This document shows positions 42,307 through 60,404 of a stretch of 64,000 nucleotides of DNA, piece after piece. Each line of letters opens with the position of its first letter. Position 1 is the stretch's first letter. Source of the DNA: an uncultured virus (IMG/VR IMGVR_UViG_3300025421_000001) (Duplodnaviria > Heunggongvirae > Uroviricota > Caudoviricetes); IMG/VR virus record IMGVR_UViG_3300025421_000001. One strand, given 5' to 3'. A program made the position numbers and the translations under genes. The notes below the pieces were generated by a model, which searched no databases, was not told the origin of the DNA, and worked only from the letters and a program-made list of their open reading frames with translations.

Positions 42307-42741
42307 GTGAGTAGTGAAAAATGGCGTGAGCATTCCGCATGTTCCGGCACAAAGGTAGATTTTTTCTCGGGATTTGTTACAGAGGAGATGAAAAATCTTT
42401 GCAAGGGTTGCCCCGTGCAGGATGAATGTTTAAAATACGCAATAGAAACAGAATCCTATGGATATTGGGCGGGAACAACAGAACAAGAACGTTTTCTTAT
42501 TCGAAGAGATCTTGGCGTTTTTGAGCCAGGGTACAATCCAAGCCTTAACAAGCAGATGAGACGCGCGATGCCCAAGGCAAAACATGTTTTAAAAGAAATA
42601 GAACATGGAACCGAAAAAGGATATCAATTACACATTAGGCGTAAGTGGCGATTTGTTGATGAAAACAATCAAGTTTGTGAATGTCGCAAGGCGCATACAG
42701 AATTTATTAAAAAATATAGAGAATCGAGAGCAAAGACATGA
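42307..42741 (+). CDS. whiB: WhiB-family protein with C-terminal extension
   Basis: WREHSAC..FF..CKGCPVQDEC..GYWAG; HGT..GY...CEC tail. Confidence 0.8.
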   Translation: MSSEKWREHSACSGTKVDFFSGFVTEEMKNLCKGCPVQDECLKYAIETESYGYWAGTTEQERFLIRRDLGVFEPGYNPSLNKQMRRAMPKAKHVLKEIEHGTEKGYQLHIRRKWRFVDENNQVCECRKAHTEFIKKYRESRAKT

Positions 42742-43653: not shown

Positions 43654-43956
43654 TTAGTTGACGTATTCTCTCTTTTCACCAACGTAACGAACAAAAACAT
43701 TGTATGTTCCATTTTCATTAACTTGACTCATTGCTTGATAGGCAAGTGCTTTTCTGTCAACATTGGTTAATGTGGTAAGTCCAACAAGAGTTCTCAAAGC
43801 TTGGCCCGAATCCCCGCCTGTTTTTGAATTTTCTTTCCACAAAAACCATTCGCCTGGATTTGACTTAAGTAAATTTCTGCGTGCAATTGTCTTTGGACGG
43901 CCTCGCTCCGGTCGTGGATTTGCTTTAATCAATCCTGTTATTTCTGAATTATTCAT
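43654..43956 (-). CDS. Hypothetical protein
   Basis: ATG at 43956 with upstream AAGGA. Confidence 0.6.
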   Translation of the reverse strand: MNNSEITGLIKANPRPERGRPKTIARRNLLKSNPGEWFLWKENSKTGGDSGQALRTLVGLTTLTNVDRKALAYQAMSQVNENGTYNVFVRYVGEKREYVN

Positions 43957-44086
43957 TCGTTTCCTTTTCTTTTTTTTCAAAATTAGTTATTTTGCTTTTG
44001 TTACTTGGACATACATGGGCAACCTCAATAGTTGCATCAGTGCTTTTAACAACTTTTTTGCATTTAGGACAAACCCATTTAGTCAT
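43949..44086 (-). CDS. 45-aa Zn-ribbon protein (not in ORF track)
   Basis: MTKWVCPKCKK...HVCP. Confidence 0.55.
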   Translation of the reverse strand: MTKWVCPKCKKVVKSTDATIEVAHVCPSNKSKITNFEKKEKETNE

Positions 44087-44090
44087 ATAT

Positions 44091-44543
44091 TTACTCTACC
44101 TCATCAATGGGTGTGCTGTCAATTAATTTTATAGCATCAAGCATAATAAGTTCTTCTAGATCCCATTCATTAAAATCATCAGTATCTTCTATGTCAATGG
44201 TTACTTCTGCCGCAATAATAAACTTTTTTACCTTGCGAGTTTTAAAGTCATTAACACATTCCTCAACGGATTCGCTTGACCAACGCATTGTTGCAAACGC
44301 TGGCGCTACTTTTCCGCAATAAAGTCTAGCCTCGTATTCACGCTTTGTATCATCATCAAATGACAAAGCATGCTCTACCGCCAACTTTGGGGGAAGACTT
44401 CCAAACGGTTCCAGCCACATATCGTAAGCTTCCTCCGCCGTTGTAGTCTCCCCCCAAAGGACGGCAATTTCAGTATAACGAGTACCGATCTTTTCGTAAA
44501 GAACTATTGACCATTCCCTTTCCTCAGTCAAATAATTGTCCAT
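44091..44543 (-). CDS. Acidic hypothetical protein
   Basis: ATG overlaps the stop of the upstream gene. Confidence 0.6.
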   Translation of the reverse strand: MDNYLTEEREWSIVLYEKIGTRYTEIAVLWGETTTAEEAYDMWLEPFGSLPPKLAVEHALSFDDDTKREYEARLYCGKVAPAFATMRWSSESVEECVNDFKTRKVKKFIIAAEVTIDIEDTDDFNEWDLEELIMLDAIKLIDSTPIDEVE

Positions 44544-45058
44544 TACCAGCCGCTTCCACAACCATATTGATCGGGTACATACGAGCCAAATCCAGAAGCA
44601 ACCTGAATTTTTTTGGCAATGTATACCTGTTGTTCTGGGCTTGCGGACCACTCTGGCCCAAAAAGCCTAAATCCACCGTATTCATACCAATTATTAAGCA
44701 AAATGCCCAATCCCCCTTGGTATAAGTTTCCCTTTGTGTGCCAATTGCCACCAGTCTCGCAAATGTTCACCTTTGACCACTTCTGCATATCAAGAACTGA
44801 TACAAGTGGTGGCGCGTCATGCGCCTTTTTATGCGACGTTGGTAAAGCTGGATCAACCTGGACCTTAACCCAAGATGTAGCCATTTGTGTGCCATCAGCA
44901 CTAACAACCAACGTGCGCTTCATATTAATTACTGGCTTTGTTACAAGGGTACTAGCCCCATTTTTTATACTTCCTAATGCTTTGGTCGCCATTCCTATGG
45001 TTTCCAATAATACAAATACTACGGTTACTACGATCAAAACTGCGATAATTCTACGCAT
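44543..45058 (-). CDS. Resuscitation-promoting-factor-like lytic transglycosylase with signal/TM segment
   Basis: WSKVNICETGGNW..YQGGLG..W..YGG..ASPEQQVYIA. Confidence 0.85.
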   Translation of the reverse strand: MRRIIAVLIVVTVVFVLLETIGMATKALGSIKNGASTLVTKPVINMKRTLVVSADGTQMATSWVKVQVDPALPTSHKKAHDAPPLVSVLDMQKWSKVNICETGGNWHTKGNLYQGGLGILLNNWYEYGGFRLFGPEWSASPEQQVYIAKKIQVASGFGSYVPDQYGCGSGW

Positions 45059-45148
45059 TCTTCTCCAATGTTTGGCTTATATTACGTAAAGCTGAGGTGT
45101 TGATTCACAGTATCCAGTCTCCTTTCGACTTCATTTCTAACATACCCC

Positions 45149-45200
45149 ATTATACCATGTCAAGTACCTCTGGCAAGGGTTCTTTGTGACAGAAATCACA
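45149..45200 (-). promoter_or_regulatory. Promoter of the Rpf-like gene plus CRP/GlxR-type site
   Basis: TTGCCA-16-TATAAT with TG extension; TGTGA-CAGAAA-TCACA at 45185-45200. Confidence 0.65.
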
Positions 45201-45295
45201 AGACCCCCCGGGCTAGCATATCCGGAGGGTCTTGCAACGTGAGTAAGGCAGCACCTGAAATGCAGGAAAGGGATAAGCCACAGTCAGGTCCGCCG
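45195..45295 (-). ncRNA. Candidate ~100-nt small RNA (hairpin with CU-rich loop plus terminator hairpin)
   Basis: TGn-TAGTAT at 45309-45301; two stems whose G-U pairs work only on the minus strand; no ORF. Confidence 0.55.
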
Positions 45296-45368
45296 TGTAC
45301 ATACTAGCACTGTAATTACACAAATGTAATTCCCTTGACAATTACAAAAAACGTGGTAAAATGAACAT

Positions 45369-45773
45369 ATGATTACAGAAAACCTAGAAACCCTTGAAAT
45401 TGCAGACTATTTATACAGTCTTCCAGAAACCATTGGTATCAACCTTGCCGATCAAAAAGAAATTTTAGAAAAAAATATTGATTTTACGATCTTAAAGCTT
45501 GCGGAACCAGTGGCAAAAGAGGTTACGGTAAAGTTTATTGATGACAAAGAAGGTCATGAATATAGGATATTTTCTTTTGATTTTGATCGTGAAACAAAAG
45601 CAGATTTAATATTTTATCGTTTTTCTGAAACAAATGAACTTTTTACAATGGACGCCAAGCGCACTCAAGATTGGCTGATTGAAACTGGCGAATCTTATGT
45701 GCCGGTAGACCTATTTAATAAACCAAATGGGCTTAGAGATCGCATTAAAATTAACAAGATTAAACTTATTTAA
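45369..45773 (+). CDS. Hypothetical protein (probably leaderless)
   Basis: TTGACA-16-TAAAAT ends 6 nt before the ATG. Confidence 0.65.
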   Translation: MITENLETLEIADYLYSLPETIGINLADQKEILEKNIDFTILKLAEPVAKEVTVKFIDDKEGHEYRIFSFDFDRETKADLIFYRFSETNELFTMDAKRTQDWLIETGESYVPVDLFNKPNGLRDRIKINKIKLI

Positions 45774-55753: not shown

Positions 55754-55921
55754 AAATACATTTTCTTGTCGAAAATTTTTAACACTAATCAAAGCTAAAT
55801 ATATTTTCTTGTCAAAAATTTTACGCCAGTTTGGCAGAATCCTTCAGGGGATACATATATATCGATCGACCCTTGTTGAAAATTAAGCTTGCTGAAGATC
55901 CTAGCTATTCAGCAGCGGAGA

Positions 55922-55969: not shown

Positions 55970-56555
55970 TTACAGATCGTAAAATAGGTGACCTGCTCCA
56001 TTCCCTTCAGGGTCAGAACTAGGAATTATGTAAGACATGTCATCAAAGAAAATAGCCATAGGAATAGTTCCATGGTGTCCCGTTTCATTCCATCCCATGC
56101 CTTCGATCTCATCCGCTCCTAATGGTCTTACCTGAATAATGGTCTTACCGACTAAAGATCCATACTCTTTATCTATGTAATCTTTGTAATCTGTTTTCAT
56201 TATTACCCCCTTACGCTCTAACACGTAAGAAGGCAATAATGAAACGCTCGAAATCCCATTCCATGTCTAAGTCATCAACTCTAACTGACTTGGTGTCATG
56301 GTTGACATAAACATTACGCCATGAATCAAAACTAATTGAAGTAGAGATACCAAAACCAGTTTCGGACATCACGTTATCTTGTATCATCTCGCTAAAGACA
56401 ATGCGGTTTAGGTAAGGCTCATCATCCCATCTACCACGCCCACGCTCTAAAGCGCTTGCTACTGTTTGCGGTAATTCGCTTGCTCCCCAGTGAGAATAGA
56501 AACAAATGTCCGAACCGCCCTGCTTTTGCATTACTACAGTTCCACGGTCTCCCAT
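55970..56555 (-). CDS. Two hypothetical proteins (56211..56555; 55970..~56200)
   Basis: GGAAAGG SD; MGDRG..YSHWG N-terminus. Confidence 0.65.
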
Positions 56556-56631
56556 AAAACCCCTTTCCGTAATAGCACTTTGCCATTACATAATTATTAT
56601 ACCAAATAATTTATACTTGCGCATGTATCTA

Positions 56632-56681: not shown

Positions 56682-57256
56682 TCACTTTGGCACTTTATAG
56701 TTAAATACTCCATTCTTTAACGCCTCAAAACCATGCTGTGCCATAGCCATAGCGTGATTACACGCCTTAGCGCCATACTGCTTTATACACTCCATGCCGC
56801 CAATAGCAAAATTATGCACTGCTTGTGCATAGGTTAGTTTGCATGAATAGTAAAGTCCTGAATGATGACAAATGTGTTCTGTTATTGTTTTCATTATTCC
56901 CCCAACTTAATTAGGTAACTTTGCTTGGTGTAATTCGTAAGTGTTTGCACTTGATTGTCATCAAGTCCAACAGTGTTTCCCTCGCTGTCCGTAAGCATGC
57001 TTGTAAAAACAACATTCCCCGAAATGTAATCTTTAACATCATACTCATTCATGAATAATGAGGTCGCTGTAGGATTCTGATCGAAACCCATGTATCTGTA
57101 TTCCTCATTTACCCACATAGTTACATTTAGCGAAGGTAGGTCAATGGCTTCAATAAGACCCTCAACTGTTTCGCTCAATAGTTTGTATGCGTTCGACTTG
57201 TCGAACTCAATGAGTGTTTTAATTCCATCAGTATTCATTGTTATTGCTTGCATCAC
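56682..57256 (-). CDS. DUF3846-like protein (56894..57256) and a 70-aa protein (56682..56894)
   Basis: VEGLIE..MWVNEE..N.TA..I.GNVVF. Confidence 0.65.
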
Positions 57257-57326
57257 TGCCTTTCCGTAATCGCTCTTTGCGGTTACGTAATAAAATTAAC
57301 ATAAACAATTAAACAAGTCAAGCACC

Positions 57327-57429
57327 AAAAGAAAACCCCTAGCCGAAGTAGCTAGGGGTTTCCAGGGGGATCTTTGTTAGGTATTGGAAAGGCGGGCGGG
57401 CGCACCTATTTACATAGGCACACCCACCC
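57327..57429 (-). ncRNA. Candidate structured 3'-UTR/small RNA: 16-bp GNRA hairpin, anti-SD linker, terminator
   Basis: GGGUGGGUGUGCCUAU-GUAA-AUAGGUGCGCCCGCCC, then GCCUUUCC, then AAACCCCUAGC/GCUAGGGGUUUUCUUUU. Confidence 0.5.
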
Positions 57430-57442
57430 TAGCGCACATTAC

Positions 57443-59991
57443 CTAGCGCCTATGTGTCACTGCCAAGTATCCAACATAGATACCGACAATGCCAACGAAC
57501 AACGAGGGGAGAATACTATCTACCCACTGTACGACAATACTACAATTATTAAAGGGTATGCGTTCTTGTGTCCAAAAGAACATTAAAGCGTATGAAATCA
57601 TTCCTACCGACCAGACAAAATAACGCTCGGCAAATGTTCCTTTTCGGTTTCTCCTAGTCATCAGCCAGCCACCTCGTAATCGTCACAAGCCCGAGCAACC
57701 GCATCACTAAGTTCCTCGCATAATGCGCTTAGTTCGTAGGGGCTCAAGTTTGCAACCATAGCCTCGGTCAGTTCAGCAAACCAAACGACCTCGGTGCCAT
57801 CAGCACCAAATGTTTTTACTTCACTCATAATGCTCCTTTTCTTGTAATTTTTAATACTTACAAATTGTATCACTTAAAAAACTTAAAATACATTTTCTTG
57901 TCAAAATTTTTTATACCAGCGCTTCAGCGCTATCCCCTCCGTCAGTGATCCGCACTGCCTCGCACTGCCTCGCAGATCGACCCCGGCAGCGAGATCCCGC
58001 CAAAGCTAGAGCGAGGGGGAGTGCCCCCCTCGCTCCTACCTTGTGCCTTTTCTTTTCTTAAATGCTCATAGCCTCTAACATTTCCCGAGCCTCTACCTCT
58101 TGTGCCTCTTTCTCCGAGACCGCCAGCGAGGCGAGGAAGTTACGGTATTCATTGAATGAATCAAAAGTAATCATGAGACCAGCGATTACGATAACGTAGT
58201 TCTTATCTCCCTCGTCATTTACAAAACTTGAATAGAAAGAATGGATCTTGCTGGTCTTGTCATGTTCCCAATAGCCATAATCCCTCTTATCTAATTCAAT
58301 GCTTACTGTGTTTGCTTGCATTGGTAATGCCTTTCCTTTAGTGGTTATTTACTACCCTTTATTCTTATCACAGTTTCTACGTCTTATAGTGTTATTTATT
58401 GCATTTATTTTATTACAATTATGTAACAAAAAAACTACCCTCTAAAATCGTTTTTTAGAGACTTAAAAAGTAATCTAATAGGAAAGTATTGGCTCCGCTG
58501 CAGGGTGTCGAAAATCGTGATCTAGGCTGATCTAAGCTGAAAATGAAACAAGGGGGGCATTTAGCCCCCCCCTCATTCATTTTTTTAACTGTTTAAGCAT
58601 TCATTAAGGCGTTTAGTTCATTTATTGCGTTAGCGGATTGTAGGATTCTTTCGTAAGCCTCTCTCTTAGTACGGTAGCCCATTCCACCCGAGCCCCTGAA
58701 ACCTGGCAAATCATGTAGCCATTCTCTTTTAGGCGTTTCAATAAATCTAACAAAGTAAAAATTATTACCATAAGGGGCGGTTACACAAGCCCCCTCTAAC
58801 TGTTCACCTTTCATTCCTGCATTCTTGCAAGCGTTAAGGTAAAAAGTAATAGCCTGCCCTAATCTTTCGTTAGTAATTCGATCTTGTGCCATTAGTAGCC
58901 TAGCCATTCCATGAAAGGGCCCCAAGTAAAAACCTCTCCCCCCTCATTGTATGGCTCAGATAGTAAGACCCCGAAATCCTCGGCGGAAGCATAAACACCC
59001 CCTACGCCTAAGCCATGCTCTACACATAACCGCTTAACCTCTGCAAGCGTTAAAGTCTCGTCATAATCTCTACTTAAAATTGTTTCGCTGTAATTCTTTC
59101 CCATTAGAACTTGCCCCCTCTCATAATAAAGTATTGAGCCCATGAGCCTATGCTACCCCCGATTAAAAAAAATGCTAATTCTCTCATTAGTAACCTGCCT
59201 CATTTATTTTAATCTCCGCAAACTTCTCAAGTAATTCTACTATGGTTTCACGTGGCAAATTGTCGCAAACGTAATCCGCAAACTCGTTTGACTCCGCCAA
59301 GTTCTCTAGCCAGTCGCTGTAATCTTGTTTCATTAGTAATGCCTTTCCTTTATTTTATGACCACCCCAAAGATAAAAAATCTAGCCAATTTTTTTAAGCC
59401 AGCATTTTTAGCTTGTTAGTGATCTTTAGTAGGGTGACTTGTGTCACCCCCGAGAAACCGCCCCCCTCGGGGCGAATCCTCGGGCGTGCGCCCCCCCCCG
59501 AGAGAGGGGGGGGCATTATCCGCCCTACTTGGTCAAATCTAGGGTAGTCCACCTTTCTACGCCGTCTACATCTAGGCAGATACTAAAGAGGTTAGGCATT
59601 ACACGCCCTGCCTTGTTATAGCGTCTATCTATGCGCTGAACTATGCCAGTCACCTTAGAATCCTGACTAGTAAAAGGCTTCCCTACCTGAACAGTGAGAC
59701 CGTCACGCTGAATGCGGTTAAAGGTCATTACGCTACGCCCTGCTGTGGTGGTGTATTTAGGCATGATTAGTTACCACCCTTGCGAGACTTAGCCCATAGT
59801 GAATCGGTAAATGGTTGAATGCTTGCATTTAATTCTTTCTCATCTGTGCAGGTGTCACAGTAAGTAAAGACGCCATCTTCTAAATCCCAACATTCACCGC
59901 CACAAGGTGGCGTTAATGCCTTACCTGCCATCTGCCAGAATCTGGCTACATCTTGTCGCTTGTTGTTTTCGCTGTATTCATAGTGTTTCAT
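57443..59991 (-). CDS. Series of small leftward ORFs (57443..57661, 57661..~57828, 58058..58321, 58593..~58892, 58892..~59104, 59187..59333, 59525..59764, 59767..59991)
   Basis: Several have AAGGAAAGG or GGAG SDs; GC hairpins separate the units at about 58010, 58550 and 59490. Confidence 0.6.
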
Positions 59992-60158
59992 GGTACTACC
60001 TTTCCTTTATTTTTAAGGGTTTTAGTGCCCTTATGTAAATAATCATAACATGGTTTTAGGGTCATAGTGTTTGTTTTAGTGTTTTCTTATGTTTTTTTAT
60101 TGTTACAATTTCTAAGGGGTTTCGTAACATAGCTTGTTACTAATTCCATAGGACAATT

Positions 60159-60220
60159 CCCCCCCCTGACACCTGACCCCCTGACCCCCTGCCCCCTGAC
60201 CCCCTGCCCCCCTGCCCCCT
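60159..60220 (+). repeat. C-rich tandem repeat (CCCCCTG[A])n
   Basis: About 8 imperfect units; G5 runs on the minus strand. Confidence 0.9.
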
Positions 60221-60404
60221 CGGGTGATCTTGGAAAATGACCCCCCCCTAACCCCTTGACCACCCCCACCAGCCACCCAACACCCAAACAGCGAAACATC
60301 GGCCGGGTGCACACATACGCAAATTTTGATCTCTTATATGAGAACATATGTTCACCACCGTCGTAAGACTGGAAATTAGGTACCATATTTGATACTGTAT
60401 AAAC

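Follow-up and report, generated by a model that had tools for sequence, protein, structure and literature searches.

Members of the 6C family of small RNAs contain two or more hairpins, the loops of which carry runs of about six C's, and the RsaE/RoxS-type sRNAs of Firmicutes use unpaired C-rich motifs to mask Shine-Dalgarno (SD) sequences. Among phage RNAs, c4 is encoded ahead of the operon under its control, on that operon's own strand. According to one report, the C-rich loops of the actinobacterial 6C sRNA pair with G-rich mRNA without the help of chaperones (PMC6486639). A 2025 review of phage small RNAs describes the c4 antisense RNA of P1/P7, whose loops pair with complementary sites around a translationally coupled gene; a term search of the review gave no occurrence of "actinobacteri", "mycobacteri" or "Gram-positive" (PMC12197685). 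Almost all descriptions of regulatory RNAs in phages concern Gram-negative hosts, and no actinophage small RNA was found in the literature that we searched.

Here we describe an element in a 64-kb stretch of viral DNA (the whole of which is called the window below) that an earlier note, made from the letters alone, had flagged as a candidate small RNA gene with an anti-SD loop. The analysis confirms that the element is real, structured, conserved, non-coding and strand-specific. Its loop resembles those of 6C sRNA in being exposed and rich in C, and we consider below what such a loop may pair with.

Results

Genomic Setting

We read the source of the window, from its gene content and its relatives, as an uncultured phage of Actinomycetota. 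In addition to WhiB it encodes RecA, a RecE-like exonuclease, an SNF2 helicase, a DnaB-like helicase and an Rpf-type transglycosylase-like protein; its G+C content is ~34-49%, and more distant relatives of the Rpf-like protein occur in the genomes of Acidimicrobiia and Actinomycetes. The nearest record is a 30.6-kb viral contig with 100% identity across the region, and a search of phage records with positions 44900-45500 of the window returned 0 matches. No tRNA or tmRNA was found in the 64-kb window, nor did any Rfam family match it at the gathering threshold.

The element belongs to a leftward cassette (43654-45310), made up of the RNA, the Rpf-like gene and the genes for an acidic 150-aa protein and a 108-aa protein, which sits inverted between rightward genes. 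Family searches of the neighbouring 134-aa, 150-aa and 108-aa proteins yielded no informative family, and none of the neighbours matched an RNA-binding family. The features of the region are collected in Table 1.

Table 1. Positions in the window of the RNA gene, its surroundings and its candidate target
Feature	Position	Strand	Description
5' hairpin, 16 pairs, one bulged G, internal loop	45245..45294	-	GGCGG-ACCUGA-C-UGUGG CUUAUCCCUUUC CUGCA-UU-UCAGGU-G-CUGCC
Apical loop CUUAUCCCUUUC plus CU, C/U-rich, putative seed	45264..45277	-	unpaired in the minimum-energy and consensus folds
Single-stranded linker UUACUCAC(G), 8-9 nt (UUACUCACG)	45237..45244	-	identical in 6/6 variants
GC-rich terminator-like hairpin AAGACCCUCCGG/CCGGGGGGUCUU with U-rich tail UCUUGUGAUUUCU	45195..45236	-	15-17 pairs
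Extended -10 box TGcTAGTAT of the small RNA	45301..45309	-	TG 45309-45308, TAGTAT 45306-45301
Perfect palindrome TGTAATTACA	45311..45320	.	between the two back-to-back promoters, in the spacer of the RNA promoter
Divergent promoter TTGACA-16-TGgTAAAAT	45335..45369	+	from a consensus scan; ATG of the 134-aa gene 7 nt after the -10
TGTGA-N6-TCACA palindrome (CRP/GlxR-type consensus)	45185..45200	.	overlaps the terminator tail, upstream of the second promoter
Second promoter TTGCCA-16-TGgTATAAT for the Rpf-like operon, strong	45149..45176	-	11/12 match, with TG
Leader of the Rpf-like gene, near-invariant	45059..45142	-	holds an SD and an upstream ORF
Strong SD GAAAGGAG in the Rpf-like leader	45126-45119	-	
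8-codon upstream ORF MNQHLSFT	GTG 45108 to TAA 45082	-	in the Rpf-like leader
Divergent intergenic region, 310 bp	45059-45368		contains the RNA gene
Rpf-like transglycosylase gene, 171 aa	44543..45058	-	hydrophobic N-terminus; Pfam PF06737, E 4.5e-12
150-aa gene	44543-44091	-	second gene of the Rpf-like operon; ATG overlaps the Rpf stop codon (TAATG)
Candidate target AGGAAAGGGA, 10 nt	44515..44524	-	codons 6-9 (GAG GAA AGG GAA) of the 150-aa gene
WhiB gene	42307-42741		in the window

Structure and Covariation of the Element

The RNA gene runs on the minus strand from 45294 to ~45195 and consists of a hairpin, a linker and a terminator-like hairpin that follow an extended -10 element. All of the pieces named in the earlier note (extended -10, hairpin, loop and second hairpin) are present as it described them. 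The arms of the 5' hairpin, GGCGGACCUGA...UCAGGUGCUGCC, enclose the C/U-rich apical loop of 12-14 nt, of which the segment UCCCUUUCCU is cheap to open (0.89 kcal/mol). The minus strand folds with an energy of -47.6 kcal/mol, as compared with -30.8 +/- 3.6 for shuffled sequences (z -4.68; 0 of 200 as good), and the plus strand with -35.7 (z -2.16; 4 of 200 as good). Folding of the read-through transcript leaves the 5' hairpin unchanged. In the window the terminator-like hairpin has a 10-nt loop and a poor U-tract, with 4 T's in the 8 bases after the stem, and a better one is present in the related locus L008.

Relatives were sought with the Rpf-like protein, with two probes (a 17-mer and a 19-mer) taken from the hairpin's 3' half, with the leader and in species genomes. 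The 20 loci that carry the element reduce to six distinct RNAs (the window, L005=L007, L006, L008=L018, L017 and L106), and the six-row alignment of this small and closely related sample was scored with a hand-written structure. A further match to the 19-mer (L021) and five loci that fit only the pattern of the stems (L134, L135, L137, L142 and L143) were set aside as chance, being GC-rich coding sequence with no C/U loop.

Standard pairs make up 96.9% of the 196 pair cells of the alignment, as against 48-55% after a shift of the 3' partners by 1-3 columns. Changes on both sides are seen at five pairs, two of them in the 5' hairpin and three in the terminator stem. Neither the 7 cells changed on both sides nor the covariation score of 0.214 was reached by any of 500 shuffles, and the covariation in related phages that the earlier note had named as a check is thus present; independent changes are few because the six variants come from one narrow clade. 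Within the 5' hairpin, 97.9% of cells are paired, the G-U at pair 4-47 is invariant, and G-U/A-U switches occur at three further pairs; the inner stem, which is U-A/G-C/U-G/G-U/G-C in the window, becomes G-C/A-U/U-A/A-U/G-C in L017. Since many of these G-U pairs would read as A-C on the opposite strand, they fix the element to the minus strand, as had been argued from the window by itself. The outer stem (11 pairs) and the linker show no letter changes among these phages, whose overall identity is only 75-91%, and the terminator stem has a loop that varies freely in length and sequence.

The apical loop is C/U-rich in all six variants, with the form CCC(C)UUU(U)CCU. Its variants read UUUAUCCCCUUUUC and UUUAUACCCCUUUC, the loop sequence being CCCUUUCC or CCCCUUUUCC, in which 3-4 C's are mixed with U's. 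A small protein encoded by the 42-aa ORF 45213-45341 was ruled out by frame-breaking indels of 2 nt in the loop and 1 nt beside it; because these indels are not multiples of three, the RNA element is non-coding.

Promoters, Palindromes and the Rpf-like Leader

The extended -10 sequence TG-N-TA(G/A)TAT is kept in all seven aligned loci, in which N (C/A/G) and the surrounding letters vary, and it always stands 6 nt upstream of GGCGG, across a spacer of differing letters. TAGTAT matches the consensus at 4 of 6 positions, and the -35 is weak by inspection; a simple consensus scan listed neither the RNA promoter, which is sub-threshold, nor the RNA terminator. In the region of the rightward promoter the letters ATCATATGTTCATTTTA are invariant among relatives, and the message of the 134-aa gene, which heads a rightward array of small genes, is probably leaderless. 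Two operator-like palindromes, GTAATT..AATTAC and TGTAATTACA, lie between the rightward promoter and the RNA promoter. The second of these has its sole exact copy within the window here and is conserved across all variants; its presumed function would be that of an operator.

The TGTGA-N6-TCACA palindrome follows the CRP/GlxR-type consensus given in a published study (PMC13720381) and is the single exact match to it in the window. In all variants its half-sites are kept and its centre is variable, and its distance to the -35 of the second promoter differs by 8-29 nt among them. Since that study also states that rpfA of M. tuberculosis is directly activated by CRP (PMC13720381), the phage cassette may, by analogy, copy the host control of rpf through this CRP-type site. 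Both hexamers of the second promoter are invariant in all variants. The leader of the Rpf-like gene is almost letter-identical between relatives only 75-91% identical overall, and in L017 both substitutions within the upstream ORF are synonymous; Rfam searches at E<=10 over 45000-45420 placed no riboswitch family on it. Pairing in cis between the loop and the SD of the upstream ORF was considered and rejected, as the hybrid reaches -8.6 to -10.7 kcal/mol and does not appear in the fold of the read-through transcript.

Distribution and Known Families

A covariance model of the element (R1) scores the element itself at 106 bits in the window, where the next match (22 bits) is the terminator read backwards. 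The model found 0 matches in 74 loci surrounding Rpf-like genes with 26-63% identity, which lie in other contexts, 0 in the complete 88-kb relative G159 and 0 in 151 sampled and 3 chosen Actinomycetota genomes, a sample that held no positive-control genome; among 18 genome loci it gave one match, L106. Because R1 found none elsewhere, the RNA is confined to one narrow clade, and there it always heads the same leftward cassette, all six variants adjoining, and lying upstream of, the same Rpf-like cell-wall hydrolase cassette. G159 shares a 44%-identical early protein (gene 56211-56555) with the window but has neither the Rpf-like gene nor the RNA, and the lack of the cassette in this complete distant relative suggests that it is an acquired module.

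Rfam, another check that had been proposed, matched no family. At E<=10 over 45000-45420 there were only four far sub-threshold matches (lncRNA fragments, a flavivirus frameshift hairpin on the terminator and a His leader). The 6C family (RF01066) stays below its gathering threshold in the window and is absent from the E<=10 list for 45000-45420, and the Rfam C4 model (P1/P7 c4) gave no match at gathering or at E<=10.

Complementarity to Shine-Dalgarno Sites

The earlier note had proposed that the RNA acts in trans to silence SD-led messages, its loop being complementary to the SD of several leftward genes. The sites that it cited do exist: GGAAAGG is found on the minus strand at 56562, 57259, 58330, 59342 and 59999, in each case 5-8 nt before an ATG, and recA has GAAAGGA 5 nt before its ATG. 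These five sites are not independent, because they are copies of two duplicated upstream modules, D3 (3 copies) and D4 (2 copies), and GGAAAGG is not enriched in the window (10 occurrences against 8.45 +/- 2.69 expected). Using a crude gene list of 113 starts and the 14-nt loop, we found that 16 of the 113 ribosome-binding regions bind the loop at -10 kcal/mol or better. Composition-matched shuffled loops give 11.8 +/- 3.7, and 32 of 200 of them reach 16.

Over the 113 starts, binding to the loop correlates with binding to a generic 16S-tail motif (r = 0.72). Compared with the other 90 genes, the 23 leftward genes of 50-60.4 kb are the better binders of the loop (p = 0.0035) and, still more clearly, of the 16S motif (p = 0.0005); a loop-specific preference over the 16S motif was not found between the same two groups (p = 0.59), the SDs of the leftward early genes being stronger towards both partners. 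Window-wide, 25 of 30 shuffled loops match or beat the best site of the real loop (-16.8), and 154 scanned segments bind at -12 or better, against 152 +/- 52 for shuffled loops. The SD complementarity is what any C/U-rich loop would show and by itself is no evidence of a target. What stands of the proposal is a conserved, structured, non-coding and strand-specific unit with a loop that is C/U-rich in six variants; the targeting of SD sites drew no support from enrichment, from binding relative to shuffled loops or from loop-specific preference. Nor does the linker behave as a second seed: allowing up to 2 mismatches, it has 12 matches where 10.3 are expected, and the gene itself provides the sole exact match.

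The contigs of the relatives cover 29.7-48.2 kb of the window, and the relative found via gene 56211-56555 lacks the RNA. If the loop targets the SDs at 56-60 kb, GGAAAGG would be expected to read GGAAAAGG in relatives with the loop CCCCUUUUCC.

Several further features were observed in the part of the window that holds these SD sites. The two copies of the 33-nt D4 module (56556-56600 and 57254-57295, minus strand) each consist of a promoter-proximal 5'-UTR hairpin followed by the SD GGAAAGG and a start codon; the hairpins, GUAAUGGC..GCUAUUAC and GUAACCGC..GCGAUUAC, show compensating differences, and the first copy stands behind a TGgTATAAT box. The intergenic stretch after gene 57443-57661 (57325-57445, minus strand) forms a very stable fold (z -6.56), with a 16-pair hairpin, single-stranded GCCUUUCC and CCCCC, and a canonical terminator with a U-run. 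There the 8 nt of GCCUUUCC are exactly complementary to GGAAAGGC, the SD of the gene that follows (ATG 57253); a promoter-like site of this gene's own lies between the two. Three copies of a 28-nt repeat, AAATACATTTTCTTGTCGAAAATTTTTA (D2), occur at 55754-55824 and 57886-57913; read leftward they contain TTGACA or TCGACA and are possibly early promoters or operators of the leftward small-gene cluster. A run of 8-nt repeats, CCCCCTGA/CCCCCTGC (D1), occupies 60162-60221 inside the leftward ORF 60087-60386.

A Candidate Target in the Second Operon Gene

Outside the RNA gene the sole exact 9-mer complement of the loop is found at 44524-44516. This site is not an SD; its frame is that of ORF 44091-44651, read from the ATG that overlaps the Rpf stop (TAATG), and a 3-nt indel in the region of the site among relatives keeps that frame. 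The loop alone forms a hybrid of -16.8 kcal/mol with the site, as compared with -10.9 for the runner-up in the mRNA of the operon, and the site costs 0.10 kcal/mol to open, as compared with 1.0-5.6 for the SD sites tested. In that operon 12 of 400 shuffled loops do as well (p ~0.03), the region having been chosen after the match was seen. In each of the contigs of four relatives, GGAAARGG is confined to two places, the RNA gene and the candidate site.

The perfect 10-nt match is kept in 4 of 5 variants (the window, L005/L007, L006 and L017) and has one mismatch in the fifth (L008/L018), where a central C-A leaves -12.1. In L005/L007, L006 and L017 the loop CCCCUUUUCCU and the site AGGAAAAGGG form 10 perfect pairs. 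The window differs from these three in its loop, which is 2 nt shorter, as well as in its site, which has two substitutions. The apparent compensation is weak, because the window loop on the ancestral site loses only 1.2 kcal/mol (-15.6 vs -16.8). The site lies at +20 to +29, beyond the region in which pairing is known to interfere directly with initiation. We regard it as a lead, not a finding.

Discussion

The sequence evidence leads us to judge the chances about even that the element is an independently transcribed small non-coding RNA acting by loop pairing. Transcription would start at G45294, 7 nt after the extended -10 and back-to-back with the rightward leaderless early promoter, and would end near 45195-45186, at the GC-rich hairpin with its U-rich tail, to give an independent RNA of ~95-105 nt. 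In this RNA a stable 5' hairpin would hold the C/U-rich loop open and would be followed by the invariant linker and the terminator stem. The loop would serve, in the manner of 6C sRNA, as the seed for chaperone-free pairing with accessible purine-rich mRNA stretches of the GGAAAGG type, lowering translation or stability. Within the phage, the likeliest target would be AGGAAAGGGA, which lies 20-29 nt into the gene whose translation is coupled to that of the Rpf-like gene; further candidates would be host mRNAs and strong SD sites, for example the one that precedes the start at 56555. We infer that the RNA is its own unit because a separate promoter, with an 11/12 match, follows the hairpins.

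As the main alternative, the hairpins could form the first part of a long leader of the Rpf operon and act in cis as a 5' stabiliser, as an insulator or attenuator ahead of the second promoter, or as a c4-like element that is released from its own operon and acts on it, which we consider unlikely. All six variants have the hairpins ahead of the Rpf-like cassette, in its orientation, as a leader would be, yet a near-consensus extended -10 promoter stands between them and the gene, and their distance to this second promoter varies 8-29 nt among variants. The weak U-tract permits read-through, but the fold of the read-through transcript shows no pairing of the loop with the leader, and the free variation of the terminator stem beside a fixed first hairpin, with no anti-terminator alternative seen on inspection, does not favour attenuation. 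A leader would also be consistent with the joint absence of RNA and cassette from G159, with the absence of the RNA at the 74 distant Rpf-like loci and with the location of the only outstanding complement in the same operon.

It is less probable still that the RNA is made but does not pair with mRNA, and that it instead binds, or acts as a decoy for, the ribosome or a protein of the host or the phage. The invariance of the outer stem and linker at such overall divergence would suit this explanation but may reflect the shallow sample. No target stands out statistically, as would be expected of a decoy; however, the variation in loop length keeps the 10-nt match in 4 of 5 variants, and the analysis points to no protein partner, the neighbours being without a match to an RNA-binding family.

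A role at the level of DNA, or no expression at all, with the stretch providing operators, a CRP-type site or a barrier terminator between promoters, is very unlikely: the three conserved palindromes (GTAATT..AATTAC, TGTAATTACA and TGTGA-N6-TCACA) and the sub-consensus promoter would fit, but the palindromes fall outside hairpin 1, the strand-specific G-U pairs and G-U/A-U switches would be meaningless in DNA, and both helices carry compensatory changes.

There is a similarly small chance that the RNA mimics the anti-SD tail of 16S rRNA and sorts messages by their type of start, damping SD-led host and leftward early phage mRNAs while leaderless messages escape. Such sorting would be in keeping with the transcription of the RNA back-to-back with a leaderless early gene that has no SD to mask. 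If it is true, the second exposed GCCUUUCC (57393-57386), which lies in a structured mRNA tail and is the exact complement of the SD of the next gene, would make this a repeated principle of phage control.

The loop-pairing small RNA that we favour would offer a compact case in which RNA control by phages of uncultured actinobacteria can be tested. The locus also teaches that the "anti-Shine-Dalgarno" complementarity of a C/U-rich loop does not, taken by itself, identify targets.

In its comparison with known systems, the RNA differs from the RsaE/RoxS-type sRNAs in phylum, in architecture, in its phage location and in giving no Rfam match. It has more in common with the 6C sRNA (RF01066, M. 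tuberculosis B11/6C), with which it shares an actinobacterial setting, an exposed C-rich loop, a small size and an order of hairpins followed by a terminator. Unlike 6C, it has one seed hairpin in place of several, its loop mixes 3-4 C's with U's and has no runs of six C's, and it is phage-borne and was not found in the 151 sampled Actinomycetota genomes. With c4 it shares its place in a phage, ahead of an operon that is read in the same direction, and its loop may, like those of c4, pair with a site in that operon. Here, in contrast to c4, there is one loop and one 10-nt site, which is inside a coding region and not at a ribosome-binding site, and the RNA has its own predicted promoter and terminator, whereas c4 is processed from the operon transcript. 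The RNA would thus be a new member of two known kinds, the small RNAs that base-pair through a C-rich loop and the small RNAs of phages.
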